64,000 bases of DNA from Mucilaginibacter sp. KACC 22063. GTDB taxonomy: Bacteria; Bacteroidota; Bacteroidia; Sphingobacteriales; Sphingobacteriaceae. The first letter of the stretch is position 1. Each line of letters opens with the position of its first letter. This document shows positions 8,792-59,835 of this stretch, one piece after another. The stretch spans positions 4,534,187-4,598,186 of the forward strand of contig NZ_CP117877.1 of the NCBI RefSeq assembly GCF_028736115.1. The letters are read 5' to 3'. Both the position numbers and the translations under genes were made by a program. The notes beneath the pieces were generated by a model that was not told the DNA's origin, did not search any database, and saw nothing but the letters and a program-made list of their open reading frames with translations.

Positions 8792-9033
8792 GGCGCCGTC
8801 CTTTTCACCTCTTTCTCTGCTCCAAAGGCTTCCTCCGGAGCAGAGAATTGTTGACTTACACCTTACTTAAATATCCCCCAACACAATTCCATATTTTAAC
8901 AATGCTCCTGCGCATCTGATAAGTATAGGCGGCAATAATCTTTACTGTCAACAGCGGTAACTTTTTCATATCCTTTATTGAATTTAAGGCTTAAAGCCCT
9001 AAATTGGGGCTGCAACATATCCCTGCTTTACAA

Positions 9034-10419: not shown

Positions 10420-10481
10420 TTAATCTGAAGAATTTTAAACTATGGGTTGTAAATTTGCGGCTCATTATCTTATTGTAAAAC

Positions 10482-43794: not shown

Positions 43795-44610
43795 ATGAAA
43801 ATTACGCTGCTACTTTCTTTTATATGCTTTTCAACTGGAGTTACGCTTGCACAGCCCAATCCGCTTCCTAAACCCCGGCATGCGTTCACCGTAGTTGCAC
43901 ACAGGGGCGACCACGTTAAATACCCCGAAAACTCTTTAGCGGCTTATGCGGAGGGTATAAAAAATGGCGTAGATTATGTAGAGATTGATCTGCGCACAAC
44001 CAAAGACAGTGTGCTGGTAAGCATGCATGACGGATCTGTAACCCGCATGACGGGTGCAACCGGAAACATCAGAGACCTGACGCTTGCCCAGGTTAAACAA
44101 CTGCGTTTAAAAAGCCGCGACACCAGCGACACCACTGTTTATCACGTACCGACATTCGAAGAAATCCTGAATTTGTGCAAGGATAAAATTTACATCTATC
44201 TTGATTTTAAGGAGGCATCGGTTGCTGCTACCTATGCCATGTTGCGCAAACATCACATGGAAAAGCAGGTGATTGTTTACATTAACAGCGAACAGCAATT
44301 AACCGATTGGAAACATGTGGCACCGCATATGCCCTTAATGCTGAGCCTGCCCGAGAATGAAAAAGACCTTGCCGCTATCAAAGCCTTTATTGACCTGCAC
44401 CACCCCGACTTATTAGATGGCAACTGGAAGGACTACAATAAAGAAATATTGACATATTTACAGGAAAAGCACTTATTAGCCTGGCCGGATATACAAAGCG
44501 CCGACGAAGACAAAAACTGGAAAGCTGCACTGGGCTTAGGATTTCACGGCTTGCAGACCGACCACCCGGCAGCACTGATTAATTATTTGGAAGAAAAGAG
44601 GATCAGATAG
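43795..44610 (+). CDS. glycerophosphodiester phosphodiesterase family protein (secreted)
   Basis: Signal peptide. VVAHRGD (HR(G) catalytic His) and EIDLRTTKD (E..D). Confidence 0.8.
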   Translation: MKITLLLSFICFSTGVTLAQPNPLPKPRHAFTVVAHRGDHVKYPENSLAAYAEGIKNGVDYVEIDLRTTKDSVLVSMHDGSVTRMTGATGNIRDLTLAQVKQLRLKSRDTSDTTVYHVPTFEEILNLCKDKIYIYLDFKEASVAATYAMLRKHHMEKQVIVYINSEQQLTDWKHVAPHMPLMLSLPENEKDLAAIKAFIDLHHPDLLDGNWKDYNKEILTYLQEKHLLAWPDIQSADEDKNWKAALGLGFHGLQTDHPAALINYLEEKRIR

Positions 44611-44632
44611 CGATTGAAAATTTGTGTTTGAC

Positions 44633-44824
44633 TTAAAAATCCTCAATTTTAAGACCATCAGAACTCAATACAGCTTTTATATTTTCCCTACCCAACTCTA
44701 CATATTCAAGAATTAAAGCAGCCTTATTTATATCTTTCTCTTTAATAGCCTCACGATACTTATCCATCAACCCACTTACATACAGACGCTCATTAACTGT
44801 CATTCCCAAGTACTTATTTGCCAT
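44633..44824 (-). CDS. hypothetical small protein
   Basis: 63-aa ORF at the island edge. No motif. Confidence 0.35.
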   Translation of the reverse strand: MANKYLGMTVNERLYVSGLMDKYREAIKEKDINKAALILEYVELGRENIKAVLSSDGLKIEDF

Positions 44825-45139
44825 GTTAATTATTACATAATAAGTTTAATTGCAGTTATCTTGTTGAGCCACCCAAATGATCTATAAATATAATTTCACC
44901 CATATACCTACTATAATTAAAATTATAATATACTCAGTCCACATATTCCTATTGTCCTACTTAGAATTAATTTGTCTTCGCAATCCCCCTCTGAATCCAT
45001 GTAGCACCCAATAAAAAAATGCTCCTATCCACAAGCATGTTAGCCTTGCTGCAAACGGTTCCTTTGCCATTATTTAAATTTCTTTCCCTTCAGACCTGCC
45101 TAGTAGTATCATTAAAACAATATATTTAATTACATGCTT

Positions 45140-45634
45140 CTAATTAACAACTTTATGCTCTTTGTTAAAATCATCCCAGCTCATTACCTGGTGATCATCA
45201 AAATAGCTTGCTACAAGTTCAATATTAAAAAGTTTAGGCTCTTCTCTAATGTTTAGCTTATTCAAGTACTTTTTATAATCTTGGTACTTACTAAATCCTT
45301 TTTCCAAACGCTTAGATGGTATAATTATGTGCCATGATTGTTTTTCATCTTTACCATCGAGAATAGTATTTATATTATAAAGAAAAATCGCATCATCTTT
45401 TACTGCTACCTTAACCGTATTTGGAAGGCCAGTATCCCCGTTTCCGAATAGATTCACACACCATCCAAATTCTTTAGAGGTTAGTATTGCTTCATAGGGC
45501 TTTAACAACGGTATTCGTGCTGAATCCCATTCTCCTTTCTCGGTATAAAACGAATCTGTTGTCGATTGTTTATTAGAATACTGTAAACAAGAAGTTAATA
45601 TCAATGATAATATAAAAAGGTACAGTTTTTTCAT
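45140..45634 (-). CDS. hypothetical lipoprotein
   Basis: Lipobox LILTSC. 164 aa. Confidence 0.5.
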   Translation of the reverse strand: MKKLYLFILSLILTSCLQYSNKQSTTDSFYTEKGEWDSARIPLLKPYEAILTSKEFGWCVNLFGNGDTGLPNTVKVAVKDDAIFLYNINTILDGKDEKQSWHIIIPSKRLEKGFSKYQDYKKYLNKLNIREEPKLFNIELVASYFDDHQVMSWDDFNKEHKVVN

Positions 45635-45720
45635 CGTTTTATATTTTTCACGTCAACTTTCATAAAGTCCCGATAATCTATTATTCACTTACGACTTAGA
45701 AAGGACTTAAAACAGTATTA

Positions 45721-46077
45721 TTAAGCCTGTCCCGGTTCTTTGATTCGACTTCTTTTAAAATTACTAAATAACATTAATCCATAACTTAGTATAATAAAGC
45801 TTTTAACTATCAATTTTTTTGTAAAGTCAGCTTGATTAAAGTACACGTCAATTTTAGAAATGGACTTACCTAATATTGTCACATTAAATAAAAAAAAGAG
45901 CAGTATAGGAATACCGACAGGAGTGTTCGTTCTGAACTCAATAAAAGGAAACACATAAGCAACTATTAAAAGCAATCCCATTTCAAGGACAGGCAAATAA
46001 TACGATTCATTGTAAATGAAATGTAAAATCAGCCAAATGATTAATATTATCGCTGTGCTATAAAATCTGAATTTCAT
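45721..46077 (-). CDS. hypothetical membrane protein
   Basis: 118 aa, 3-4 TM helices. Confidence 0.45.
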   Translation of the reverse strand: MKFRFYSTAIILIIWLILHFIYNESYYLPVLEMGLLLIVAYVFPFIEFRTNTPVGIPILLFFLFNVTILGKSISKIDVYFNQADFTKKLIVKSFIILSYGLMLFSNFKRSRIKEPGQA

Positions 46078-46223
46078 TGTAGTAACTGCATTCTAAAATT
46101 GACTAAAAATTTAATAAATACCCCGTCAGTTCTCGTTCCACTTGAGTATTGATCATCGATGGATTGTTTATAACCAGATGTTCAGAATATACTAGTATCG
46201 TGAGAGCGACTCTGAAAATCTTC

Positions 46224-46670
46224 TCAGTTTGTAATACCTAAAAAAGTTTTCAAATCATCTACATTATATAGTTCCAATGCCTTAAAAAAATAAACAGCAT
46301 GTTGTTTTCCCCTATAGTTAAATTTCATTTTATAAGAGAATCTTGCTGGTTTTCGCGCTAAGCTAAAAGCCTTTTTTAAATCAATGATTTCTGAAAGAGG
46401 CACTGTTATTTCATCTTTAGAAAAATAAGTTTTTATAGTAAGGCTCTTTGAGCTATACGACACCTTTCTATATTTCAATTGCTTGTAAGACTGCACTAAT
46501 ACAAGTATTATTAACAGAAAGTAAATAATTATAATGATGTTATCCGTGAAACTTTGAGCCCAGAAAATTCTAACAAAGATTATTATCAATATAGGTCCTA
46601 TAAATAATCCCACTAATGACCTATAGTATAAAACATCTGACGATAATTTTTTCATCTCCTTAGCTAACAC
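46224..46670 (-). CDS. hypothetical membrane protein
   Basis: 148 aa, 2 N-terminal TM helices. Confidence 0.45.
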   Translation of the reverse strand: MLAKEMKKLSSDVLYYRSLVGLFIGPILIIIFVRIFWAQSFTDNIIIIIYFLLIILVLVQSYKQLKYRKVSYSSKSLTIKTYFSKDEITVPLSEIIDLKKAFSLARKPARFSYKMKFNYRGKQHAVYFFKALELYNVDDLKTFLGITN

Positions 46671-46771
46671 TAATAGCTATATAATCCATCTTGTAAAGAC
46701 AACAGGCAATATTGATCTAAAATGCGAGATTGAGTGATCTTTAGTTAGATTAAATGTAAGAAAAATAAATC

Positions 46772-47179
46772 CTAGTGGATACCTGTAATTTGCTCCATTA
46801 TATGAAAAGCAAGCGCAAGGCTACCAATAACAAATGCTATCAAGGCTATTACTAAAAATGTACCTGCCAAATTTATATTTGGTTGCATCTTGTCAAATTC
46901 ACGTATATATTTTTTCCAATTTGAATTATGAATAAATGCAAAGTAATTAATTAAGAATACCACTAAAAGTGATATTAAAGTTTGAAATGAAAAAAAGGTA
47001 AACGCATCTTCTTGATCAATGAATTCGATGTAGTAAAATTTTAAAGATATTAAAAACAATACTTCTAAACACGAAATCGAAAATGCAGCTGTAAAATCAC
47101 TTGGAAAAATGGACGGCGACCATTCACCGAACTTATAAAATTTATAAAATAAATAATAGTATGCCCTTTTCATACTCAC
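46772..47179 (-). CDS. hypothetical membrane protein
   Basis: 135 aa, 3-4 TM helices. Confidence 0.45.
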   Translation of the reverse strand: MSMKRAYYYLFYKFYKFGEWSPSIFPSDFTAAFSISCLEVLFLISLKFYYIEFIDQEDAFTFFSFQTLISLLVVFLINYFAFIHNSNWKKYIREFDKMQPNINLAGTFLVIALIAFVIGSLALAFHIMEQITGIH

Positions 47180-47346
47180 TTTTTAATAATGATTTATAAA
47201 TCAAAAACAGGCCATAACACCCGCTATTAAAGCTACCAATCCAATTAAGAATTGGATAAGACTATCTATTTTCACTTTGACATGTAAAATAATAAGTTTT
47301 CAATTTAATTGATATAGAATAAAAAACGCAGCTCCGTTTACGCCGG

Positions 47347-47853
47347 TTATTTCATCATTATCCTTTTACGATAAACATGCCGTGATACAAGCACATTTAT
47401 AGTCTCAAAACTGATTATGATGTTGCTTTCGGAGGTGTTAAAGTACACGTTCACAAATACAGGCGTATCTATTCTGCAGGTCTTGCAAGTAATTCTATGA
47501 GATGCAGACCATCTGTACTTTTTAAAAGTAGTGTTAAAATACTTACACAGGGAGTTGAATATAGATTGATTAGGCGTTTTCATTGCATTTATGATACCAG
47601 TCCTCTTCACATCAAACCAACCTCTGTAAATCATCTCAGAATTACTGGCTTTTAGATTGAAATATATCCTATCTAGAATCTTGGATTTGATCAAATCTTT
47701 TTCAAAAGCCGCGCTATCTAAAAAAATCGTGCTTGTAAATTTAATTTTAGGTTTTAAGGCAGGAGCAGCACAGCAATCGTTTTGTGCATGGAGTTCCTTA
47801 CTTATGGTTACAAAAAATCCAATAAGCAGCAAAAGTATAAGCTTGTTCATCAC
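47347..47853 (-). CDS. hypothetical secreted protein
   Basis: Signal peptide MMNKLILLLLIGFFVTISKELHA. Cys-containing. 168 aa. Confidence 0.5.
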   Translation of the reverse strand: MMNKLILLLLIGFFVTISKELHAQNDCCAAPALKPKIKFTSTIFLDSAAFEKDLIKSKILDRIYFNLKASNSEMIYRGWFDVKRTGIINAMKTPNQSIFNSLCKYFNTTFKKYRWSASHRITCKTCRIDTPVFVNVYFNTSESNIIISFETINVLVSRHVYRKRIMMK

Positions 47854-48291
47854 TTTACTATGTTTATAGCAATTAATAAATATTAAATGAATTCTGGTTC
47901 AAACTTTATCCATTCAGCATCACTTAGATTTTACCTACTGCTCGCCCCTTAACAAAAAAACGCAGTCCTTATATGTAAGAGCTGCGTTTTTAGTACCCCC
48001 GACGAGAATATTAATACAGGCTTTTTACAGCGTTTCTGGCTCATTTTGGCTCAAATCGACTCATTTAAAATGCAAAAAAGTCCATTTGTATTTTACCTAT
48101 TATACGACTTGTAAGTGAATATGAGACGGTGGTTTATAATAGCACATAATAAGCTTTGTATTCCTCTAAGCTAATAATGTCAAATAACAACATTAAAATT
48201 AATCTAAACTTTTTCTTTTCTTGCTATGATACAATTGTCGATTATTTGAAAATACAAAAGGTATTTTATACATTAACAACAAATCTTTCAC

Positions 48292-49254
48292 ATGCCTAAG
48301 CTTAATACAAATACATTTAAAACTCTTGACGATTTACTTACGGCGGTTTATCAAGACTTAATGGAACGACCGAGTTCTATTCCAACTACAAGAAGCAAGA
48401 AAGGGGGAGACACTTGTGAAATTATTGGAGTAAGTTTGACTTTAGCCAACCCTCGTGCCCGCTTAAGTCGCTCTGAAGTTAAAGGCAAAGCATTTAGTCC
48501 TGTAGGCGAACTACTTTGGTATTTGTCTGGAAGTAATACATTAGAATTTATACAACCCTATATTTCGCATTACAAAGATGAGACAGATGATGGCAACACA
48601 ATTTATGGCGCATATGGCCCAAGGCTATTAAACATGCATAATAAATATAACCAGGTCAATAATATCATAAAATTATTAGGGCAAAAGCCCACATCTCGAC
48701 GTGCAGTTATACAACTTTTTGATGCATCAGACTTAGTTGGAACACATAAAGAAATTCCTTGTACTTGCACCTTACAATTTCTTTTGCGAGACAATCAATT
48801 AAATCTACATGTATCGATGCGCTCTAATGATGCATACATGGGCTTACCACATGACGTATTTGCCTTCACAATGTTGCAAGAAATAATGGCAAATATACTC
48901 GGTGTGGATATGGGGGCTTATCACCATTCAGTTGGGAGTCTACACCTTTATGATAATGATAGGAATCTTGTCGAACAATATTTATATGAAGGTTACCAAC
49001 CAACGAAATTTTATATGCCAGCTATGCCGAAAGTTGATCCTCGGCCAGCGATTAAGCAAATAATTAAACTTGAAGAGCTTATCCGAACGGATCAATCCTT
49101 TTGTCTTGATGGCCTTGATCCATATTGGGTTGATATCATAAAAATGGTACATATTCATTTTCTGAGTAAGAAAAAAGATATCACTGGCATCAGAAATGTT
49201 ATGGCTGGCATGAATGACATTTACAAAATGTATATTGAAAAAAAGATTTGTTAA
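48292..49254 (+). CDS. thymidylate-synthase-family enzyme (ThyA fold), predicted deoxycytidylate-type pyrimidine C5 hydroxymethylase/methylase
   Basis: Aligned from memory with E. coli ThyA: ELLWYLSGSNTL vs ELLWFLQGDTNI; TSRRAVIQLFD vs DSRRIIVSAWN; catalytic Cys in IPCTCTLQF vs APCHAFFQF; MRSNDAYMGLPHDVFAF vs QRSCDVFLGLPFNIASY; GSLHLYDN vs GDTHLYSN. The specificity Asn (ThyA N177) is replaced by Asp (PHD), as in dCMP hydroxymethylase. Confidence 0.8.
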   Translation: MPKLNTNTFKTLDDLLTAVYQDLMERPSSIPTTRSKKGGDTCEIIGVSLTLANPRARLSRSEVKGKAFSPVGELLWYLSGSNTLEFIQPYISHYKDETDDGNTIYGAYGPRLLNMHNKYNQVNNIIKLLGQKPTSRRAVIQLFDASDLVGTHKEIPCTCTLQFLLRDNQLNLHVSMRSNDAYMGLPHDVFAFTMLQEIMANILGVDMGAYHHSVGSLHLYDNDRNLVEQYLYEGYQPTKFYMPAMPKVDPRPAIKQIIKLEELIRTDQSFCLDGLDPYWVDIIKMVHIHFLSKKKDITGIRNVMAGMNDIYKMYIEKKIC

Positions 49255-49272
49255 TTCGCGCTTTTAAATATT

Positions 49273-50070
49273 ATGGTCGACGAAATAACAGAATTAGTTG
49301 AACGACTTTCAAATCCAAATCTCGCGGAATTAGATGTAATTACATGGGGAGCTCCTGTGCCTACATTTGGTAACTTAGAAGGCGCTAAAATTGCTACACT
49401 GGGTTTAAATCCAAGTAACAAAGAATTTGTAGACAATTCTGGTAATGAATTAATAGGTAACGCAAGACGCTTTCATACCTTAAGCTCATTAGGATTGGAG
49501 GCTTGGGAAGACGTACAACCTTGTCATCTCAACTCAATTGTTGAGTTATGTAATGAGTATTTTTTAAGAAATCCTTATGATGGTTGGTTTAAACGATTAG
49601 ACTATCTAATATCAGGTACATCTTTATCATATTATTTCCCCTCATCAGGGGCTTGTCATTTGGATTTAATACCTTACGCAACAACCACTAAATGGGGAGA
49701 ATTGACTAATTGGCAAAGAAATACGCTACTGAAAGAATATGGAGACATACTTGGTGAATTATTACGGAAGTCATCCATAAGATTATTAGTTCTTAATGGT
49801 AAAAGTGTCTTGGATAACTTCAATAAAATTTCAGATGTTAATTATGAAATTACATTGATGGAAGATTGGTGTTTACCAAGAAAAGACAGTACAGGAGTTC
49901 CTGGGTTTTCTTATGAAGGCATTTGCAGAAATATTGGAGGTGTATCTTTAGATGAACCTCTTTGTGTACTTGGATTTAATCATAATATTCAAAGTAGCTA
50001 CGGTATAACAACTGCAATTCAAGAATCAATTAGAAAATGGATAGCCACCAAATCGGCCAGCTTTTTATGA
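49273..50070 (+). CDS. hypothetical protein co-operonic with the TS-like enzyme (weak UDG-superfamily-like motif)
   Basis: 265 aa, 19 bp after the TS-like gene. GLNPS resembles uracil-DNA-glycosylase superfamily motif A (GxNPG/GINPG). No P-loop. Assignment is tentative. Confidence 0.5.
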   Translation: MVDEITELVERLSNPNLAELDVITWGAPVPTFGNLEGAKIATLGLNPSNKEFVDNSGNELIGNARRFHTLSSLGLEAWEDVQPCHLNSIVELCNEYFLRNPYDGWFKRLDYLISGTSLSYYFPSSGACHLDLIPYATTTKWGELTNWQRNTLLKEYGDILGELLRKSSIRLLVLNGKSVLDNFNKISDVNYEITLMEDWCLPRKDSTGVPGFSYEGICRNIGGVSLDEPLCVLGFNHNIQSSYGITTAIQESIRKWIATKSASFL

Positions 50071-50993
50071 GACTTTCAAGGGATATAGAGTTAGAAACTT
50101 CGTTAGTAAGTAGTCTTAAAGCTTTTCAAAACACAACCCCCTTATTAGGAATTGCGAATCAGCCAGAGCTTGACTGCTTTGTAAAACAGCTTGTGGATAG
50201 TGTACGTAGGATACAATATGTAACAACTATACGTGATAAAATAAATACACCGAGTTGTGTTAATCCTAACCTTGGCGGATTTAACCCCATTAAAGCGGCT
50301 GCGTTTCATCATGCTAATGGAAATTCGGAAGAAGCTTCTTGGCTTGTATTTTTAGCCACACATTTTGGCAAAAATAAAGCATCGGGATGGCAATTACTAC
50401 AAGATGTCTACGGTACTTTGGGAATGGGCATATTCGATTGGCAACAAGCATGTCAGTCTCCTCGAGGACTCGGAATATGGATTGATAATAATAAGAATCA
50501 GTTAAAAGCAAATGGTGGCAACTTTGGTAACCATCGAAAATATCAAAGCCTTAAAGTAAATAATACCGGCCAAACTATTTCGAGCTATATTGATTGGATT
50601 GGCAAAACCAAATCTCATTTAGTTAAATTTTTACAACTTGAACCAAACCAAGCTAATCCCAAAATACGATTTAGGGCATTTTATAATTCAATGTTACAAG
50701 TATATGGATTTGGAAGAACTGCTGTATTTGACTATTTAACCATGATGGGCAAATTGCAGCTTATTGATGTAGAACCCGACTCTGTATACATGATCGGCGC
50801 CACGGGGCCATTTAAAGGAGGACGGCTCCTTTTTACTGGAAGTTGTAATGCCTCAATTACACGCCGCCAAATGGATCGAATGCTGTCTTCACTTAACCAA
50901 CATTTAGGTATACCATTTGGGATGCAAGTATTAGAGGATGCTTTATGTAATTGGCAGAAATCTCCTAATCAGTATATTTATTTTAGCGGTTAA
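50037..50993 (+). CDS. hypothetical protein, third gene of the TS-like operon
   Basis: 318 aa. Start overlaps the previous gene by 34 nt (translational coupling). No motif I can assign with confidence. Confidence 0.55.
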   Translation: MDSHQIGQLFMRLSRDIELETSLVSSLKAFQNTTPLLGIANQPELDCFVKQLVDSVRRIQYVTTIRDKINTPSCVNPNLGGFNPIKAAAFHHANGNSEEASWLVFLATHFGKNKASGWQLLQDVYGTLGMGIFDWQQACQSPRGLGIWIDNNKNQLKANGGNFGNHRKYQSLKVNNTGQTISSYIDWIGKTKSHLVKFLQLEPNQANPKIRFRAFYNSMLQVYGFGRTAVFDYLTMMGKLQLIDVEPDSVYMIGATGPFKGGRLLFTGSCNASITRRQMDRMLSSLNQHLGIPFGMQVLEDALCNWQKSPNQYIYFSG

Positions 50994-52080
50994 AATCAGG
51001 TATTGCCTCCCAAGTATATTTCCTTTTATAAGAATTGAATCTATTATATTCGATTTTTCCGAAATGCTGCATCTGACCAATCAAAATACCTGCAGAAACA
51101 CCAATTTTTGAGGCAAAACCGATAATAAGCCTTTTATTGCTCACTGGCAATTTCATCATATTTTCGCGATAAATAGAGGGTATTAATTGTTCAGCAGCAA
51201 ATTCATTGGCTTCCTTTTCTTCTTCGCTTGTAAGCCTGTTTCTGCTAATTTCTTCAACAAACACAGAGTTTTGCCCATGCAATAACAAGTGGCCAGCCTC
51301 ATGAAAAAAAGTAAACCAAAAGTGATCATCAGTCAGATAACGAAAGCTGAGCATTAATAAAGCTCTATTTGGACTCAAAAATTTAGTTACACCACTCGCC
51401 TGACAACCATTAGGAGTTCGAACAATCGCAATAGCAACTCCACATTTAGCACAAATCGCCTTTAGCTTAGGCAAGAAAATCTCAGGTTCTTTAATTTTTG
51501 TTAGTGAACGTATTTCTGTTAGTGATGCTGCAAACAGTGCGGCATTCCAGTCTTTACATTCTATCGATTGACTTTGTATTTCTCCCTGTCTAAGCCATGC
51601 CGCGACAGCAGCTGGCTGTTGTTTGAAACTGGAAGATGTCCGAAATGACACTTGCGCCATTTCTGCTTGATATTTATTATGCCACTCATTGATATCAGAG
51701 ACTCCGAAATAAAGTAGCAATGCGTCAACACTTTTAGCTACCTCTTCCTTTATCCACCCGAAGTTTATCATATCACGTATTGGCAAAAGCTTAAGCCATG
51801 ATTGTTCCGCAACCTTTTTCAACCTCACAAGCCCTTCTCTGTATTGAAATTCTCTTCTTAACCAAAAGTCGACAGATGCACCAAGTATTTCTGAGAGCTT
51901 TTGAGACGTTTCCTCTGTAATTACCGCAGTACCATTCAAAAGCTCATTTATAAAACCTATGGAACTATTCATTTGAGCTGCGAAATGATGTACAGATATC
52001 TTCTTTTCTTCCAGTAATTCAACAATTGTGTCTCCTGGTACTGAAATCCAATTAGGTTTAAATGTTTCTGTGGTTAACAT
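50983..52080 (-). CDS. XRE-family HTH fused to ImmA/IrrE (COG2856) zinc metallopeptidase domain; HigA-like antitoxin/regulator
   Basis: N-terminal HTH (ISVHHFAAQMNSSIGFINELLNGTAVITEETSQKLSEILGASVDFW). C-terminal FTFFHEAGHLLLHG (HExxH of ImmA/IrrE). Starts 2 nt after the HigB-like ORF. Confidence 0.8.
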   Translation of the reverse strand: MLTTETFKPNWISVPGDTIVELLEEKKISVHHFAAQMNSSIGFINELLNGTAVITEETSQKLSEILGASVDFWLRREFQYREGLVRLKKVAEQSWLKLLPIRDMINFGWIKEEVAKSVDALLLYFGVSDINEWHNKYQAEMAQVSFRTSSSFKQQPAAVAAWLRQGEIQSQSIECKDWNAALFAASLTEIRSLTKIKEPEIFLPKLKAICAKCGVAIAIVRTPNGCQASGVTKFLSPNRALLMLSFRYLTDDHFWFTFFHEAGHLLLHGQNSVFVEEISRNRLTSEEEKEANEFAAEQLIPSIYRENMMKLPVSNKRLIIGFASKIGVSAGILIGQMQHFGKIEYNRFNSYKRKYTWEAIPDFNR

Positions 52081-52082
52081 AA

Positions 52083-52400
52083 TTATTGGATTTTTACAAT
52101 TTTAATACGATTAACTTTATTCCAATCTAACTGATCTTCCTTATTTAACGGCTGATGTTGATGAACAGAAAGAAAAATAAGAAAATGTGACGGCAATATT
52201 TCAATTTGGTAAGCAGGCCGACCTTCCAAAACTACTTCCTTTGGAGAACCCGTAGGAATATCCATTACACAATTTGCAGCCATAATATCAGCTAATCGTG
52301 TTTTAAGCTTTTTAGCAAAAACACTACCCAGTTGATCCTGAGCAAATTCCTCATTTTCACAAATCATGCGCAATGTTGGATCTGAAAAAGAGATGTGCAA
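52083..52400 (-). CDS. HigB-like (RelE/ParE superfamily, plasmid-maintenance killer-type) toxin
   Basis: 105 aa. Resembles HigB from memory (KKLKTRLADIMAANCVMDI vs HVKKLRMRLDVLDAAECLHDL; PAYQIEILPSHFLIF vs HSIRINDQWRICFVW). Toxin-first order with an HTH partner downstream. Confidence 0.6.
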   Translation of the reverse strand: MHISFSDPTLRMICENEEFAQDQLGSVFAKKLKTRLADIMAANCVMDIPTGSPKEVVLEGRPAYQIEILPSHFLIFLSVHQHQPLNKEDQLDWNKVNRIKIVKIQ

Positions 52401-52595
52401 CGCTTATTATATACTTAAAAGTCAATGATAAAGTTTGGGATCTCTGAATGAAATCATCGACAAAACTATTAAAAAATACTTTATTTAGAATTGATTAAAG
52501 GGTTTAATGTATGAATTGTTGATAAAATTAACAGTTGTTGAAAGTATAAAACGCATGATATATATTAAGCCCGTTAAAAAGCCTATTTTGTATCA

Positions 52596-52976
52596 ATGAT
52601 CATCCCAGTTGCTGCTGCCATAATAATAAAGGACAATAAGATTATGATTGCCAAACGATCACAACATAAGCATTTGGGTGGCTTTTGGGAGTTTCCTGGC
52701 GGTAAAATAGAGGCTAACGAGACTGCTGAAAACTGTTTGTTACGCGAACTAAATGAAGAGCTCAAAATAAAAATAAAAGTAATTAGCTATTTGGCTGAAA
52801 ATACATACGATTATGGCTCAATAAAAATTTTGCTTAAGGCATTTATATGTCATTTTATAAGTGGGCAATTTACACTAATTGACCACGATGAAGTAAGATG
52901 GGTGACTACTAAACAACTGCAAGATTACAATATGGCTCCTGCGGACATTCCATTCCTGAAATTACTTACCAACTAA
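52596..52976 (+). CDS. Nudix hydrolase, MutT/NudG-like (8-oxo-dGTP / (d)CTP pyrophosphohydrolase family)
   Basis: 126 aa. Nudix box GGFWEFPGGKIEANETAENCLLRELNEELKI. Confidence 0.85.
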   Translation: MIIPVAAAIIIKDNKIMIAKRSQHKHLGGFWEFPGGKIEANETAENCLLRELNEELKIKIKVISYLAENTYDYGSIKILLKAFICHFISGQFTLIDHDEVRWVTTKQLQDYNMAPADIPFLKLLTN

Positions 52977-53291
52977 TAGAATGAGCAATGTAAGATTCTT
53001 GATATATCCTTCTAACTACGTTTCTTAACCTATGTAATAAATCGATCTTATTTAATCGATACCATATTTAGTTGAAATCAGGTACAAGTGTTCGCTTTAG
53101 TGGAATTCCCCAAAAAATAGGCATTAAAAACACAGGTTCGATTCCTATCCGAAATAATATAAAAATGTCAACCTTACAGAAATTCGTCAATTACTAGCCT
53201 CTTATCGTTGCTTAGGTAAAGCAGTAGGTAAAATTTTAGATGTTTTTAGTATAATAAATATTAAAAACATCTCTCTAAATTGTGGCGACGA

Positions 53292-55286
53292 TTAGATTAC
53301 TACTAACAACCGTCGTTTTAGCAATTCTACAACTTGTTGTGTAAACAGATTTTTTAATTTATGATTTTCTTGTGCGCCATTTTGCTGAAATAAATCACAA
53401 AATTTTCTGAATCCCTCATTCATATTATTTCTGCCGTCAAACACCATTATAATGTAATAGGCTAGAGAGCTTATCTCAAAATGAATGACTTCATAAACTG
53501 AATGTATCTCAAAAAGAAAATGAGATTTGCCTTTCAAGTTTTTTGATGGCAAATGCAACGGGACATCTATCTGGTTAATATTCCAATTTGACTTGTAAAT
53601 TTTACAATATGGATTTAATCTAAGTATGACATTTTCATCGATACAATCATTCAAAATCTTGTTACCTAAAAAACTTAAATTTCTTCTTTCAACGTAGCGT
53701 TGATATTCAAAAATAAAATTATTATAGTCATTGCAATCACTCAAAAATTGGTGTTTACTCAATTCAAAGTCAAAAACTGCCTTTATAAGTTTATTTTTCA
53801 AATCGTGAGATTTCAGTCTATATAGGTCTTTAATCATTTTCTTGACAAAGAAAGACGGATGCTTATTGACTTGTTCGATTTCAAGGGATCTCAATGCGTA
53901 AATATGATTACCTACATGTTTTATTAAAGCAATAGTTTTTGGAAAGGCTTTTGAAAACATCTTATCTCGGATGTTCGAAAGTTCTAAATTAAATCTTTTA
54001 ACAGGCGAAGGGCTTTCGGGAATTAATATGTCCATCATCTTACTTTCTTTACGAAGTGATATCAAATAAAAATAACCAACACCGGCAAGGCCATTAAATA
54101 AACCTAAATTATTCTCAGGGAGTGCGGTTGGAGCAACTAGTCCTAAGACTCCTATTCTCTTTGCCTGCGATGATGCAGCTATTGCTATATTTTCGATCAA
54201 TTCTTCTTGGTAAGTATTGGGAAACATTTCTACGAATTGACGCAGCAAGTAGGCATTTCCTCCTACAGCATGGCATAAAGTATAATTACTATAATTATTT
54301 TTTATTTTACTTATTGAAGCGATTGTTGCATTTAATGCAATCGTCGCATCTTTAAGATATTTCTTGTCTCTAAAAAACTCATACATCTTCAATCTACACA
54401 TTCCAATTCCTGCTGCACCATGGCACCATGCGATCATCAATCCAGGTTCATTAAGTTTACTCATCTGAGCGCGATAACCGCTTTCACTCAAACTTTCGCT
54501 GTATTCAGAAGTGTCCTCAGAACGAAAATCAGGCCAGTTATCATGTGACTTATCAAATAGTTGATCTTCATACAAGTAGGCTTTGTCGATTAGGTATTTA
54601 ATATCAGGGTTTCCAAAAAACTTATAAAGTTCCGTTAATACCCATAACATGCCGGATACTCCATGTGCAAAACCACATAGACCAGCCATATAAATTTTTG
54701 ATTTCTCCCAATAAATTGATCCATTGGCTGACAGACAATGATTTTCAATTAGATCATTTGTAAAAAATTCAATTTGTTTTACAATTTTGATATCTTCTGT
54801 GATCGAGTATAAATTTAAAAGTGCCAAAATAGCACCGCCCGTTCCAGAAATCACATCTTTATTTTCCATCCAGTGAAACTGATTGTCAGTATCACAGTCC
54901 TTCATTACCCTTCTAGCTTGCGCTAAGAGATAGTTATCACCTGTGATCTTGTAAACCTTAGTAAGTACATAGGATACCCCCCCTCTCCCAGAATAAAAAC
55001 CGTAATTATTTGCTGAGTTATTTTCGCAAAAATGAATTAACCAGTTAGCGGCTTTTAAAATTACGTCTAAAATTTCCTGATGCTTGAAGAATAAATAAGC
55101 CTCAGACAAAAACAATATTATCCCAGCATTACCTGCATAAATACTATCGCCAACAATCTTATCATAACATTTTGTCAACCTATTATAGTTAATTGTCTCC
55201 CAATAATAGCCTTGCTCATCTTTTAACTTACTAGCAATTATTAGGTTTAATATTTCATTAAGCGTGTAATGTGTCTCGGAATCCAT
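53292..55286 (-). CDS. LanC-like lanthipeptide cyclase with ~240-aa C-terminal extension of unknown function
   Basis: LanC motifs SGTGGAI, GFAHGVSG (GxAHGxxG), AWCHGAAGIG (WCxG) and LCHAVGG (CH Zn ligands) in residues ~30-430. Residues ~430-664 unassigned. Confidence 0.8.
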   Translation of the reverse strand: MDSETHYTLNEILNLIIASKLKDEQGYYWETINYNRLTKCYDKIVGDSIYAGNAGIILFLSEAYLFFKHQEILDVILKAANWLIHFCENNSANNYGFYSGRGGVSYVLTKVYKITGDNYLLAQARRVMKDCDTDNQFHWMENKDVISGTGGAILALLNLYSITEDIKIVKQIEFFTNDLIENHCLSANGSIYWEKSKIYMAGLCGFAHGVSGMLWVLTELYKFFGNPDIKYLIDKAYLYEDQLFDKSHDNWPDFRSEDTSEYSESLSESGYRAQMSKLNEPGLMIAWCHGAAGIGMCRLKMYEFFRDKKYLKDATIALNATIASISKIKNNYSNYTLCHAVGGNAYLLRQFVEMFPNTYQEELIENIAIAASSQAKRIGVLGLVAPTALPENNLGLFNGLAGVGYFYLISLRKESKMMDILIPESPSPVKRFNLELSNIRDKMFSKAFPKTIALIKHVGNHIYALRSLEIEQVNKHPSFFVKKMIKDLYRLKSHDLKNKLIKAVFDFELSKHQFLSDCNDYNNFIFEYQRYVERRNLSFLGNKILNDCIDENVILRLNPYCKIYKSNWNINQIDVPLHLPSKNLKGKSHFLFEIHSVYEVIHFEISSLAYYIIMVFDGRNNMNEGFRKFCDLFQQNGAQENHKLKNLFTQQVVELLKRRLLVVI

Positions 55287-55494
55287 TATAAAATTTGATG
55301 TTTAGCTTCCTGTTCAATATTTCATTAACTTCCAATATAGTAAACTTGGCAAACTAACAACTACAGGCCTTAAATTTTGACATTTTCAGTTCCATGTCTA
55401 AAAAATTCATTAAATAAAATTCATATAAAACCTACTTTGAATATGAAAAAAATTTATCTTAGAGAAGATTTATAACCTGTAAATAAATTTTATC

Positions 55495-55785
55495 ATGAAA
55501 AAAAAATTAGACCTAAGTGAACTCAAAGTTCAGTCCTTTATCACATCTCTCGACGAAGCTCAAACAAAATCTGTCAAAGGCATGAGTACAGGTACCGACC
55601 CAACATCTCAAACAAACTATGTGGAATGTTGCAATACCACATTTGATCCGTGGAATACTTCTGCTACGTGTTCGGTTGCATATTGTGCCACGACAGTTCC
55701 AAGAGAATGTGATGCAACAGGAATGTACTACGCAACTTGTGACGGAAGTTGTCCAACTCAAACTCCTGGCTATGGCGATTGCTAA
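55495..55785 (+). CDS. lanthipeptide precursor peptide (LanA-like)
   Basis: 96 aa. Leader MKKKLDLSELKVQSFITSLDEAQTKSVKG carries an LDL box like the class I FNLD motif. The C-terminal ~66-aa core has 8 Cys, 14 Thr and 5 Ser. Sits between the LanC and LanB-C genes. Confidence 0.75.
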   Translation: MKKKLDLSELKVQSFITSLDEAQTKSVKGMSTGTDPTSQTNYVECCNTTFDPWNTSATCSVAYCATTVPRECDATGMYYATCDGSCPTQTPGYGDC

Positions 55786-55850
55786 TTGATAAACGGGTCA
55801 TTCCGACTTTACAGAATGACCCGTTTATCAATCAGCGATTTTAAGCATAA

Positions 55851-56768
55851 TTAAAAACCACCTATCCCTATCAGTAACATATAATAAAGATAGCTTTCAT
55901 CATGATTACTTATTCCCAGCCGGTTGTTTGTCATGTGCAATAAACTTCCAAGTATTCTCCACGTATCTGGCACTTTTGTCTTTTCCAAGCTAGTATCTAT
56001 GATAGAATTAAAGTTTGTTTTGAGTGCGATATAATCATTGTAAAAATTCTTTGCGTGATTATTCCAAGATTTTATGAGCTCATCATCAAACATTCCCGAT
56101 ATGCACTGATCCCAAATTAACTTTAATTTTAATTTTAAAAGTTCTTTATTTGCTTGTATAGCTTCACTAAATTTACTTTTGCATACCTCTACTACAGTGT
56201 CCTTTTGTAATTGTAGATTTTCATTTTTATTTATAATACGCCACGCATGTAAAATCCAAGATTCTATTTGAAAATTCAGAAACTGTCTCAACGATTCTTT
56301 ATCCAAGTTCATATTAACCAGAAAAATCAAATGCATTTCAAAACCACACATCATCTTTTGGTTATAATTATCTAATCTTTCCTTTTTGAATAGAGACAAT
56401 ATTATCTTTGAAGATTCGAAGAAATTTTTTTCGGCCAATCTAATTACTTTGTCTCCACCATATCGCTCTATCTCTGGAACGTATGGAACGGCCTGAACCA
56501 TTTCACCTGGTCTCTCAGTTATACCAAATTCACTTTTTAAAAATTCACTGTATTTGCTTTTTAAAACCTCATTAAAATCGAATTGAGACTTACTGCCAGA
56601 TAAAAACCGCAATCTGACATGTGGTCCCCCCTCAAAATATCGAATGAAAAAAAATTCCCCGTTTGTAGTCAGGTTCAGGTCATTAACTAACGGTTCTACA
56701 AACTTATGTATCAAAAAGTCAAGCGGCTTCAATGTAAAATATATATATACCGATTTCCAGTTTCTCAT
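55851..56768 (-). CDS. lanthipeptide dehydratase C-terminal (glutamate-elimination) domain protein, split LanB
   Basis: 305 aa. FFIRYFEGGPHVRLRF matches the hallmark of the Lant_dehydr_C / thiopeptide-type bacteriocin biosynthesis domain. Stand-alone size is typical of split LanB. Confidence 0.75.
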   Translation of the reverse strand: MRNWKSVYIYFTLKPLDFLIHKFVEPLVNDLNLTTNGEFFFIRYFEGGPHVRLRFLSGSKSQFDFNEVLKSKYSEFLKSEFGITERPGEMVQAVPYVPEIERYGGDKVIRLAEKNFFESSKIILSLFKKERLDNYNQKMMCGFEMHLIFLVNMNLDKESLRQFLNFQIESWILHAWRIINKNENLQLQKDTVVEVCKSKFSEAIQANKELLKLKLKLIWDQCISGMFDDELIKSWNNHAKNFYNDYIALKTNFNSIIDTSLEKTKVPDTWRILGSLLHMTNNRLGISNHDESYLYYMLLIGIGGF

Positions 56769-56903
56769 ACTGTAAAAATACTTTTTAAATTAATTCTAGG
56801 GCACATTCAAATGTGCTTGTAGACTATATTTGTATTAGATTAAAATATTGACTTATTTGCTTAAAAAGTTAGATATACGTCTAATGACCTATTAAACTTT
56901 ATC

Positions 56904-58208
56904 ATGACATATTGCCTTACCATTTTTAAATTAAAAAGCCTGCCGTTAGCGCTAGCTTTAGGATTCATCTCATTTTCTTTGCCAGGAAAACATAGAATAA
57001 TGTCAAATCGCTTTATTTCTTTTGAAGTTTATTCCTTATTAATTCAAGATCAAAGTGGCAGTCCGATACCATTTGCCACATTAACCAACACATCGCAGAA
57101 TTATTCACGTCCATTTGATAATACCGGGAAAATGGAACTGGAATCGAAAGATTTAAAAGCTGATGATAACATTATAATAAGTTGTCTAGGCTATCAGACA
57201 AAAAATCTTAAAGGGCTAGACATTATGTCTGTAAAATCACTTGCTGTAACACTAAAAGATGATATCGTCTCCTTACATGAGGTAAAGATTATACCTAGTA
57301 AATACGACTTAATATTTAAAAACATTCAAGCTCTACCGTTTCCACTCTATTATCAAGCTTACGCAACCGATGGTCGGTATGCTTACACTATTGGCGGGGA
57401 ATCCGGTGCTACAGTATGTACACAAGCACTAAAGTTTGACCCGCATTCTAATACGTGGAGCCTGTTAGCTAACCATTTAAAACCTACAATTCAATCAACT
57501 GCTACTTATTTACCGATTTCAAATAAAATTTATGTTTTTGGAGGAATAACCTCGCTTGTCAATTTTACATATTTTGAAAACGTTGAAACAATTGATGTCA
57601 ACACAGGGAAAGTAGAGATATTAAATGTAAAAAATCCGATGCCATCAGCATATGGTGGATCGGATACTTGGGCTAATAAAATTTATCTATTTGGAGGCTG
57701 CAGTGATATTAACAACTATACATCCAGCAAAGCAACCAACGATTTTTATGAATATGATCCCGTGACCAATGTGTTTACAAGGCTCCCGAACATGCCAGAA
57801 AAATTACAGACAAGTGGTCGAATTATAAATGGCATTTTATATATATTAGGTGGATTTAACCCGCAGAATGCACATATAAGTAGAAATATCTACAGTTACA
57901 ACATTAGAGAAAAATACTGGAAATTATTAGGAAAATTACCAGAAGAAGTTTCAGGAAACGGTCTTTCTGCTATAGGTAATTTGATATTTGTTTCGGGAGG
58001 TTATGAAAAAGAAACATTCTTAGGCTTCCTAAATACGCAAACTGGAGAGTTCACAAAGCTCAAGTCTAACATGACGGGTCGAAGACACTCAGCTTCTGTC
58101 ATTTTATATAATCATTTAATGATAATTGGGGGGAAAGGTGACGGTAATATTACCGGACTAAACAATGTCCAGGTTGCAAACTTGGAAAGTTTGATAACTA
58201 ATCAGTAA
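56904..58208 (+). CDS. Kelch-repeat beta-propeller protein
   Basis: Six repeats with xGG ends (YAYTIGG, KIYVFGG, KIYLFGG, ILYILGG, LIFVSGG, LMIIGG). N-terminal hydrophobic segment. Confidence 0.7.
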   Translation: MTYCLTIFKLKSLPLALALGFISFSLPGKHRIMSNRFISFEVYSLLIQDQSGSPIPFATLTNTSQNYSRPFDNTGKMELESKDLKADDNIIISCLGYQTKNLKGLDIMSVKSLAVTLKDDIVSLHEVKIIPSKYDLIFKNIQALPFPLYYQAYATDGRYAYTIGGESGATVCTQALKFDPHSNTWSLLANHLKPTIQSTATYLPISNKIYVFGGITSLVNFTYFENVETIDVNTGKVEILNVKNPMPSAYGGSDTWANKIYLFGGCSDINNYTSSKATNDFYEYDPVTNVFTRLPNMPEKLQTSGRIINGILYILGGFNPQNAHISRNIYSYNIREKYWKLLGKLPEEVSGNGLSAIGNLIFVSGGYEKETFLGFLNTQTGEFTKLKSNMTGRRHSASVILYNHLMIIGGKGDGNITGLNNVQVANLESLITNQ

Positions 58209-58225
58209 AAGTATAAAGTCTACTT

Positions 58226-59284
58226 GTGAATATCAGAATTACACTTTGCAGTCGTCCAGACGATCAAGAAGTCATAGATTTAAGGAAAAGAATTAAGGAT
58301 ACAAGCGGATACTCCACTTTTAGAAGCGAAGATTCTAAAAGGGAATTTACATACATTACCATTTCAAATATTGAAGAAGTCATAAATGACTCTGCCATTA
58401 AGATTTTAAGTAATCGATTTTATCACTTATTATTGAGACCCAATACTTCGAAAAGTATCCAAACCAATCAGTCGAAAATTTTTAACTGGCTAATTGAAAT
58501 TCCAATTTATGAATCAATTATTGACAAAAGAATCAAACTTACACTTGATATGTTTACGAACTATCATAAGATAAATTTCACAGTTCTTAAATCATCAAGT
58601 AGTAAAATATTATCAATAAGTCTTCTCAATCAAATACCTGAATTTTTAAGTAATTTATACACTTTACTGCTTTCTTTAACCGGCCCAGTAGATGCGCATC
58701 AAGCAAGGCACGAGATCGTATTGCAAGAGATTATTGCAAAAAAATCACGATTTGTACTTGAATTAGGATGTGGAAAAGGCAACTTTATTACACGTTTAAA
58801 TCGTGCATTGCCTGACATTCAAATCTGTGGTATTGAAATAAATCTTGATGATTTTCAACATGCGACAGCATATTTCGAACGACAAATTCATTCAGGACTA
58901 ATTTCTATGGTCAATGATTCGATATGCTGTTTTGAAAAATGGCCGCCGGGAGTTGACTGCATCACTTTAAATGAAGTAATCGAACATCTTACAGAACAAG
59001 AACTAAACCAGACCATCAAGCATATTTTTAACAACGTAAAACCGGAAGTAGTTATTATCACAACTCCCAATAAGAACTATAATAAATATCTCAAGCTTAC
59101 AGAAGAAGGGTTCCGACATCCCGATCATCGTTTTGAGCTCAGTCGCGAAGAATTTTCCAGGTTCGCAGCTAGAGTGATCAATGATCATGAATATGGATTT
59201 GAAATACTTCCTCATTGGTGGATTCGGGATGGTTTGGAATCATTGTCAACTATAGCCATTTTCACAAAATATTCTTGCACTTGA
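58226..59284 (+). CDS. class I SAM-dependent methyltransferase (C-terminal half) with unassigned N-terminal domain
   Basis: Motif I VLELGCGKGNF, acidic residue after beta-2 (GIEIN), motif IV-like DCITLNEVIEHL. Confidence 0.65.
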   Translation: MNIRITLCSRPDDQEVIDLRKRIKDTSGYSTFRSEDSKREFTYITISNIEEVINDSAIKILSNRFYHLLLRPNTSKSIQTNQSKIFNWLIEIPIYESIIDKRIKLTLDMFTNYHKINFTVLKSSSSKILSISLLNQIPEFLSNLYTLLLSLTGPVDAHQARHEIVLQEIIAKKSRFVLELGCGKGNFITRLNRALPDIQICGIEINLDDFQHATAYFERQIHSGLISMVNDSICCFEKWPPGVDCITLNEVIEHLTEQELNQTIKHIFNNVKPEVVIITTPNKNYNKYLKLTEEGFRHPDHRFELSREEFSRFAARVINDHEYGFEILPHWWIRDGLESLSTIAIFTKYSCT

Positions 59285-59307
59285 TATCTATTGGTAATTA
59301 TCTAAAG

Positions 59308-59835
59308 TCACTGAGGGTATAAGGTTTTTAATCTCATACCCACAGAGTCGACTATTTTTTCTAAAACTGAGGTTCTCTTTACAACAACCGACAAATGTAA
59401 TTTTAAGTGTGGATTTTGTCTTAGAAGTCTTTTTATTGAGGAATCGATTTTGAATTTTACAAGCGTTTCGGTTTCGGTTATAGGCGTTACGTTTAACAGC
59501 TTCAAACTTAAGGCAGCATTGCGCTTTAATTTAACATCGTAGGCTTTAATGATGATATCTTTCTCGAGCCTGTCGTCTATCGGTTTCCTTATAGGAATAA
59601 TTATAGATGAATAATAATAGCAATTATTACCTTCAGAACAATTGATTAATGTATTTGATTCAATTGTCTTTATAACCGGATAATCGATTAGAGATAACAA
59701 TAATAGTGTGAAAAATAAGAATAAAGATGATAGAAAAATTCCCCACCGTATCGCCCATGGCGGGCTGGAAAGAATTATATTATCGATTTCAACTGTATGC
59801 TTTTTAGCGTACTTTTTAGAATTTAAGTTTTTCAT
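59308..59835 (-). CDS. short HlyD-like membrane-anchored accessory protein
   Basis: N-terminal TM then IDYPVIKTIESN, like the HlyD N-terminus. Only 175 aa. Overlaps the ABC exporter stop by 4 nt. Confidence 0.45.
   Translation of the reverse strand: MKNLNSKKYAKKHTVEIDNIILSSPPWAIRWGIFLSSLFLFFTLLLLSLIDYPVIKTIESNTLINCSEGNNCYYYSSIIIPIRKPIDDRLEKDIIIKAYDVKLKRNAALSLKLLNVTPITETETLVKFKIDSSIKRLLRQNPHLKLHLSVVVKRTSVLEKIVDSVGMRLKTLYPQ

Follow-up and report, generated by a model that had tools for sequence, protein, structure and literature searches.

Fusions of an Xre-type helix-turn-helix (HTH) domain with a COG2856 peptidase, encoded in operons with RelE or PIN toxins, were described by Makarova, Wolf and Koonin (2009; PMC2701414), where they were predicted to form three-component toxin-antitoxin (TA) systems or to regulate a further component. 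PD-lambda-2, a three-gene abortive-infection system of E. coli (Vassallo et al., 2022; PMC9519451), consists of a HigB-like protein (A), a HigA-type HTH protein with a peptidase domain (B) and a P4-related protein (C); B alone was toxic, which was unexpected, A neutralized B and C was needed for defence. Single-stranded DNA (ssDNA) activates the peptidase CapP, and CapH and CapP derepress defence operons (Lau et al., 2022; 10.1101/2022.04.27.489752; see also 10.64898/2026.05.16.725639); the same authors describe a DISARM operon that has a vapC-like gene and a gene for a fused CapH-CapP in front of it. The subject of this study was a two-gene pair of this kind in Mucilaginibacter sp. KACC 22063, located in a stretch of 64,000 nucleotides of contig NZ_CP117877.1 (positions 4,534,187 to 4,598,186), the whole of which is referred to here as the window, together with the gene cassette on which the pair converges. 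The first-pass annotation of this DNA had presented the fusion of an HTH and a protease as an unusual twist; the class had been described in 2009 and has a validated representative in PD-lambda-2, and the architecture of the pair is already known. The new element is the fixed linkage of the pair to a hydroxymethylase/aGPT-Pplase3 cassette, which is uncharacterised in the literature searched, a body of work that excludes the original definition of the aGPT-Pplase clades.

The two open reading frames (ORFs) constitute a module of the PD-lambda-2 A/B type that is an integral, co-inherited part of a larger system in this lineage, and not a free-standing TA. The rest of the system comprises a MilA-like cytidylate hydroxymethylase and an aGPT-Pplase3 protein, with or without a 265-aa protein and with or without a NudG-like NUDIX enzyme. 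The most likely role of the pair, to which we would give an even chance, is that of a signal-responsive control module of this four- to six-gene, probably defensive, system. By analogy with characterized systems, the whole would probably be directed against phages or mobile elements and would manipulate cytosine nucleotides or DNA.

Both ORFs were verified at their positions and strand in the window, all coordinates from the earlier reading were correct, and both predicted proteins were identical (100%) to annotated proteins of Mucilaginibacter sp. KACC 22063. The small gene, the A component (52083..52400, minus strand), begins with TTG and encodes a 105-aa protein of the RelE/HigB fold. The large gene, the B component (50983..52080, minus strand), encodes a 365-aa protein in which a HigA-type HTH is fused to an M78 zinc peptidase; the ATG start of this gene lies 2 nt past the TAA stop of the small ORF. 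The ORF calls agree with the toxin-first gene order, like that of higBA, which had been recognized previously. Neither ORF arises by chance, the small family having 1,251 cluster representatives (E<=1e-3) and the large family at least 2,423 proteins (E<=1e-10). The 3' overlap with the neighbouring operon was also reproduced, as the large ORF ends at 50983 and the aGPT-Pplase3 gene at 50993, giving an 11-nt overlap of the convergent stop regions (50983..50993).

Linkage of the pair to the cassette was assessed by scanning one genome per species, and at least 533 species harboured a relative; neighbourhoods were counted in the best 80 loci of this survey. A member of the small family was located directly upstream of the HTH-M78 gene in 72 of the 75 loci with sequence there, while the aGPT gene and the gene of the thymidylate synthase (TS) superfamily were convergent downstream in 35 of the 67 loci with enough sequence, and these 35 represented essentially all loci at about 40% identity or above to the query. 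In all non-redundant cassette loci (41/41) the pair was convergent on the cassette; the stops overlapped in 21 and were 0-30 nt apart in a further 19, thus lying within 30 nt of each other in 40 of the 41. No terminator-like site was found near the stop overlap of the window copy. Individual homolog loci were also looked up, from Pedobacter, Flavobacterium, a Desulforhabdus metagenome-assembled genome, an Acidobacteriota genome and several metagenome contigs, and every one displayed a small ORF without Pfam match and an HTH-M78 gene convergent on genes for aGPT-Pplase3, a ~265-aa protein and a TS-like protein. The same pattern was repeated in the reverse direction: a convergent ImmA/IrrE gene adjoined the aGPT gene in all eight plasmid aGPT loci examined (including Pantoea, Leptospira and Arthrobacter), where the small gene was present and frequently unannotated, and both of two arbitrarily picked distant members of the small family occupied the identical arrangement.

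Cassette-linked relatives were distributed over at least eight phyla and were also found on plasmids, and in a neighbour-joining tree every cassette-linked HTH-M78 protein fell into one clade and every cassette-less one into the other. That a selfish TA module came to lie beside the cassette by chance was rejected on the synteny and the tree. These data provide strong support for the functional tie between pair and cassette that had been proposed from the window alone. Flanking genes were unrelated between loci, which suggests that the system is transferred as a block, and at other loci the flanks often carried defence genes, among them NACHT, BilD, Fic and restriction endonuclease genes. Two metagenome loci additionally contained a canonical PF05015 HigB-like toxin gene and a short HTH_3 gene beside a resolvase, ~4 kb from the system (L003, 8018-8667; L004, 7921-8570); classical higBA pairs and HigB-fold/HTH-M78 pairs therefore coexist on one element.

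The large protein was assigned to its families by profile and by fold. Residues 232-330 (51091..51387, minus strand) matched the Pfam family Peptidase_M78 (PF06114; ImmA/IrrE, COG2856) with E 4e-10 and 40 bits against a gathering cut-off of 22. The N-terminal HTH_3 match (residues 21-73; 51862..52020, minus strand) reached 22.9 bits, just short of its cut-off of 23, and the NCBIfam HigA model TIGR02607 matched the N-terminus with E 4.7e-9 but with 36 bits against a cut-off of 47.7. The PADLOC model for the B component, PD-Lambda-2_B, recognized the protein with E 2.3e-24 (residues 42-353, model positions 86-388 of 402), and the PADLOC capP model matched it with E 3.4e-8. An AlphaFold (AF2) model was obtained with a mean confidence (pLDDT) of 85.5 and matched solved structures in two pieces when compared by Foldseek. 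The first ~80 residues resembled HigA of P. vulgaris and of E. coli (28-36% identity, TM 0.74-0.77), the top matches placing this domain among HigA-type HTHs, and the C-terminal part superposed on CapP of Thauera (7t5t), an M78 peptidase activated by ssDNA that controls CBASS. Xre/HigA HTH and ImmA/IrrE-type peptidase are thus present in one chain, in agreement with the first-pass annotation.

The HExxH motif of the peptidase reads HEAGH (residues 260-264; 51289-51303, minus strand) and is followed by EEKEANEFA, the third-ligand motif. In an alignment of 34 homologs of 48-86% identity H260, E261 and H264 were invariant, and the EEANxFA motif (E288, E290, A291, N292), the usual region of the third zinc ligand, a downstream Glu, was at least 90% conserved. 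The invariance of the HEAGH residues and the conservation of EEANxFA make the peptidase look catalytically active. The HigA-like HTH was also strongly conserved among the homologs. Between HExxH and the third ligand the alignment and the model displayed no cysteine-switch loop, and a GAF domain was likewise absent; no beta-rich domain followed the peptidase in the model, the chain stopping at residue 365.

The small protein had no match in Pfam, NCBIfam, PADLOC or PHROGs, and its family profile found nothing below E 0.8 among PDB sequences; fold comparison alone succeeded. The predicted structure has the RelE/ParE alpha-beta fold with HigB as the best structural match, which bears out the earlier description of the protein as HigB-like at the level of the modelled fold. 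Of the two domains expected by the first-pass annotation, Peptidase_M78 was therefore recovered above its cut-off in the large protein, while no toxin domain was recognized in the small one (no Pfam match at E<=0.1, PF05015 included). Nine of 110 relatives of the small protein matched PF05015 (best E 8.4e-6), and hhalign against one PF05015 toxin gave a probability of 55% (E 1.2e-4). By sequence comparison, the small family is a remote relative of PF05015, not a member by hidden Markov model (HMM). Identity of the small family with PD-Lambda-2_A was rejected, as the PADLOC model recognized 0/110 members.

An exhaustive profile search was required to collect the small family, a word-seeded search having given 3 relatives. 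The members were mostly 104-112 aa and aligned from profile position 1; F5 and R11 were at least 95% conserved and the model shows a strand at residues 2-5, and for these reasons the long TTG start is supported. The small gene frequently has a wrong start, at the internal Met12, or lacks annotation altogether in public records and plasmid tables (P0002, P0003; L091, 7005-7457; L093, 6966-7313), and automated surveys therefore under-count it. The catalytic residues of P. vulgaris HigB are H54 and the C-terminal D90-Y91-H92. The C-terminus of the small protein reads ...RIKIVKIQ and the D-Y-H of HigB is absent there. Conserved polar residues of the family lie in helix 1 (R11, E15 and the invariant C14) and in helix 3 (D38 and the invariant R35); near the last strands H80 (89%), R98 (92%) and K100 (84%) were conserved alongside D92 and W93. 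H80, R98 and K100 could form a different RNase site, and the pattern of conservation is as compatible with a partner-binding protein as with a variant RNase. That the small ORF encodes the killer is an assumption; the roles are reversed in PD-lambda-2, and the D-Y-H of HigB is missing here.

The first cassette gene (48292..49254, plus strand) encodes a TS-superfamily protein (PF00303, E 7e-28) whose best PDB matches were the CMP 5-hydroxymethylases 5jnh and 5b6d (E 1e-49, full length), whereas true thymidylate synthases matched it at E 9e-22 at best and over the core only. On the PDB E-values this neighbour, originally labelled TS-like, is better assigned as a MilA-like (d)CMP 5-hydroxymethylase than as a thymidylate synthase. 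As MilA is its nearest relative, the comparison suggests that the cassette may act on cytidine, and not on thymidine or uridine, nucleotides. The middle, accessory gene (49273..50070, plus strand) encodes the 265-aa conserved protein, which matched nothing in Pfam, NCBIfam, PADLOC or PHROGs and had no sequence relative in the PDB. The gene was found in 14/35 cassette loci counted (~40%), and GLNPS, CHLDLIPYAT and GFNHNIQSS were invariant motifs of its product. A likeness to uracil-DNA glycosylases noted by eye was dropped, because the best match of the profile against the PDB was an unrelated protein at E 0.15.

The last cassette gene (50037..50993, plus strand) encodes an aGPT-Pplase3/ADDT-family protein (PF18746, E 1e-90). 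The aGPT-Pplase3 clade had no match in 50,697 phage records and none in PHROGs, and a phage origin of the cassette was rejected on this ground. No kinase domain was detected in any cassette gene by the Pfam, NCBIfam and PADLOC scans. On the Leptospira interrogans plasmid NZ_CP043895.1 (L092, 4950-5886) aGPT-Pplase3 was split into two ORFs annotated as hypothetical proteins, a split that points to a frameshift in, or decay of, the cassette on this pathogen plasmid.

Divergent from the pair, and separated from it by 195 bp (52401..52595), lies the accessory gene for a NudG/MutT-like NUDIX pyrimidine (d)NTP diphosphatase (52596..52976, plus strand; NF007834, E 4e-34), which also matched the PADLOC candidate PDC-S07 (E 4e-50). 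A divergent NUDIX gene was likewise present in Bacteroidota, Acidobacteriota and Planctomycetota loci (L001-4, L009-11, L023 and L090). In Larkinella (L014) the NUDIX gene lies inside the cassette operon, downstream of the hydroxymethylase gene (about 10095-10496), and is for this reason attributed to the system; its position there points to a movable component.

The cassette-less relatives of the pair had a variety of neighbours, including genes for a Beta protein, DUF4238, SMEK/REase-PNTD, Hypoth_Ymh, a type I restriction-modification S subunit, a DNA methylase and a STAND-like NTPase, and some were located among ordinary housekeeping genes. With neighbours so heterogeneous, a single alternative partner for these relatives was rejected; the pair thus behaves like a portable unit whose partners can be exchanged, and in the clade of the window the partner is fixed. 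One cassette-less locus (L065) was a bona fide PD-lambda-2 locus, in which B and C were recognized at 4e-37 and 4e-60 and a small gene of the same family as in the window was present upstream. In another (L069) the pair was followed by a SMEK-domain protein (8130-9629; PADLOC Aga_REase-PNTD1-PNTD2, E 1e-169), another defence-type partner.

Compared with PD-lambda-2, the order of a HigB-like small gene followed by a HigA-type HTH with a C-terminal M78 domain is the same. The two systems differ in that PF05015 is the family nearest to the small protein, while A of E. coli, with the same fold and in the same position, belongs to PF09907 (HigB_toxin), and in that the cassette-linked large proteins form their own clade. 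The window pair has exactly the architecture of the class of Makarova et al. (2009), although the accessible text ties no subclass to hydroxymethylase/aGPT-Pplase cassettes. With respect to HigBA (HigB and HigA of P. vulgaris Rts1), the antitoxin homolog has ~290 extra residues with an intact zinc peptidase, the small protein lacks a direct PF05015 match as well as the terminal D-Y-H, and there is an obligate linkage to a further operon.

CapH/CapP, ImmR/ImmA and DdrO/IrrE (PprI) share with the pair an Xre-type HTH and an M78 HExxH peptidase, onto one of which, CapP, the C-terminal part superposes; these circuits derepress an attached operon when DNA damage is signalled, and there are CapH-CapP fusions with a toxin-like (vapC) gene in front. 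However, CapH and CapP are encoded by separate, divergent upstream genes with a GAF domain in CapP, whereas here the HTH is followed by the peptidase in one chain without GAF and with an extra RelE-fold partner, and the pair is divergent from the NUDIX gene alone. The cassette itself resembles phage thymidine hypermodification clusters (Lee et al., 2021; PMC8989533) in its aGPT-Pplase/ADDT protein and its TS-superfamily hydroxymethylase. It differs from those clusters, which combine a 5-hydroxymethyluracil (5-hmU) DNA kinase, an aGPT-Pplase and a dUMP hydroxymethylase, in that aGPT-Pplase3 is present and the kinase was not found, in that the hydroxymethylase is nearest to the CMP hydroxymethylase MilA, and in that the cassette is chromosomal or plasmid-borne, is accompanied by the HigB-like/HTH-M78 pair and has an aGPT clade without phage homologs. 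Among the predictions of DefensePredictor (PMC13092281) is a putative defence system in which an aGPT-Pplase domain occurs together with a homolog of an established defence gene; it may be the present system.

Promoter and operator of the pair presumably lie in the 195-bp intergenic region (52401..52595), which contains blocks conserved with L090, an 86%-identical relative. A candidate operator, TTCAACAACTGTTAATTTTATCAACAA (52516-52542), was chosen post hoc; its CAACA/TGTTG half-site recurs in promoters of related pairs and, having been found after the fact, is not claimed as an operator. No operator common to the pair promoter and the cassette promoter was detected above chance (11-mers with <=1 mismatch, 11 loci compared with shuffles, a test of low power), and the idea that the HTH represses the cassette directly is consequently unsupported.

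If the pair is the control module of the system, it may function as follows, by analogy with PD-lambda-2, CapH/CapP and HigBA. The two genes would be co-transcribed from the promoter in 52401-52595, and a dimer of the HigA-like HTH, bound to an operator in the shared intergenic region, would repress its own operon and the divergent NUDIX gene. The small RelE-fold protein would bind and restrain the fusion, as HigB binds HigA and as PD-lambda-2A neutralizes PD-lambda-2B. A cue from infection or DNA damage, for which ssDNA is a candidate as for CapP and PprI, would then switch on the M78 peptidase, which would cut the HTH or the linker, its own or that of its partner, so that expression flips and/or a growth-arresting activity is released. 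The stop-to-stop convergence, which is strictly conserved and leaves no room for a terminator, would moreover couple transcription of pair and cassette inversely. The self-cleaving switch and the physically coupled transcription of the first-pass annotation are likewise inference. The folds and the invariant catalytic motif, the kinship with PD-lambda-2 (the B match and locus L065), the consistent synteny and the precedents of PD-lambda-2, CapH/CapP and the DefensePredictor prediction were counted for a control module, as were the promoter region that the pair has in common with the NUDIX gene and the PDC-S07 match of the NUDIX protein.

Several observations weigh against this interpretation. 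The PD-Lambda-2_A model fails on the whole of the sampled small family, the window protein included, and the window contains no PD-lambda-2 C gene (Beta-protein, PF14350), the aGPT gene, in convergent orientation, taking the downstream position. Pair and cassette converge, whereas CapH and CapP lie divergent and upstream, and no operator-like motif is common to the pair and cassette promoters in the 11 loci of the low-power test. The window copy is outside any obvious defence island and adjoins a lanthipeptide cluster; neither an integrase gene nor a tRNA lies close to it. Finally, conserved H80, R98 and K100 are compatible with a small protein that acts as an RNase toxin and does more than regulate.

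This last point leads to the classical alternative, a type II higBA module beside the cassette that addicts the host to, or stabilises, a mobile island. The small protein would cleave mRNA as a ribosome-dependent endonuclease, and the HTH-M78 protein would serve both as its antitoxin and as an autorepressor. The toxin-first order with genes 2 nt apart, HigB as the best structural match, the HigA-like N-terminal domain (including its TIGR02607 match) and a possible RNase site made up of H80, R98 and K100 on the sheet all suit this explanation, as does the occasional occurrence of cassette-less relatives among unrelated housekeeping genes, in the manner of selfish TA modules. Nevertheless, the fixed stop-to-stop position beside one cassette, down to ~36% identity and in at least eight phyla, is unexpected of a mere addiction module, the terminal D-Y-H of HigB is absent, and a simple antitoxin role leaves the 290-aa conserved extension with its intact protease unexplained; a classical higBA system is thus considered quite unlikely. 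The opposite polarity, that of PD-lambda-2 taken literally, would make the HTH-M78 protein a toxic protease effector and the small protein its antitoxin or inhibitor, with the cassette replacing PD-lambda-2C to sense or act on phage and transcription control being secondary. The behaviour of the E. coli proteins (B toxic alone, A rescuing, C required for defence; PMC9519451) is the basis of this explanation, to which the PD-Lambda-2_B match, the co-occurrence in L065 of these A and B families and a true C gene, and the conservation of the small family around its helical hairpin (R11, C14, E15, R35, D38) can be added; the invariant cysteine could, speculatively, cap the zinc site. However, toxicity of B was seen on overexpression alone and in one E. 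coli system, the E. coli B family is a distant relative, as the E-value of the model indicates, with an A protein from another Pfam family (PF09907), and the strong conservation of the HigA-like HTH argues that DNA binding matters. Reversed toxicity is accordingly regarded as unlikely, a little less so than a classical higBA system.

A defensive role is itself dispensed with if the cassette installs or salvages a modified pyrimidine in the host, and the pair times its expression in the manner of a C-protein or of ImmR/ImmA, for example after transfer or DNA damage. The cassette enzymes do come from families that modify nucleotides and DNA, non-defence regulons are governed by the M78/Xre circuits ImmA/ImmR and IrrE/DdrO, and the window copy lies outside a defence island. 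Set against a housekeeping controller are the patchy distribution over several phyla and plasmids, the frequent defence genes in the flanks, the PADLOC matches (PD-Lambda-2_B, PDC-S07) and the DefensePredictor prediction, and of the explanations considered it is judged the least probable. A more specific and still doubtful form of the control module, given the same low weight as reversed toxicity, is that of a portable infection sensor which gates a host-encoded, phage-style pyrimidine hypermodification pathway as a weapon. A phage cue would unleash the cytidylate hydroxymethylase, the NUDIX enzyme and the glycosylase-like aGPT-Pplase3, and the (d)CTP pool would be depleted or corrupted, or replicating DNA marked and broken.

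If a weapon of this kind were confirmed, it would represent a new class of nucleotide-based immunity. To our knowledge, such enzymes are so far known solely from phage counter-defence and nucleoside-antibiotic biosynthesis; aGPT-Pplase clade 3 and the MilA-like hydroxymethylase are flagged here as cellular, not phage, enzymes in a probable conflict system. The combination of RelE or PIN proteins with Xre-M78 fusions has been puzzling since 2009, and we know of one validated case, PD-lambda-2, in which the role of the protease is unexplained. A two-gene module welded to a defined enzymatic cassette across phyla offers a natural experiment, because its outputs (cassette and NUDIX expression, nucleotide pools and DNA modification) are measurable and the switching mechanism is directly testable. 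The copy on the Pantoea plasmid (NZ_CP134741.1, 50408-54176) should be tractable in enterobacterial hosts.

The surroundings of the pair in the window were also surveyed. At ~44.4 kb the GC content drops from a level of about 0.42 to 0.28-0.39, and it remains low across cassette, pair and lanthipeptide genes (44400-57000+). There was no tRNA in the window and no integrase was seen near the cassette or the pair. The adjoining lanthipeptide-type biosynthetic cluster (53292-62012) encodes a 664-aa LanC-like protein, a Lant_dehydr_C protein (55851-56768), a Kelch-repeat protein, a methyltransferase and an ATP-binding cassette (ABC) exporter with a C39 peptidase, and a 96-aa ORF rich in Cys, Thr and Ser (55495-55785) is a possible lanthipeptide precursor. 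On the other side, five small ORFs (118-168 aa) are arranged in a row on the minus strand (45140-47853) in the stretch of lowest GC content (0.28-0.30); the two that were scanned had no Pfam match, and several resembled membrane proteins by eye.

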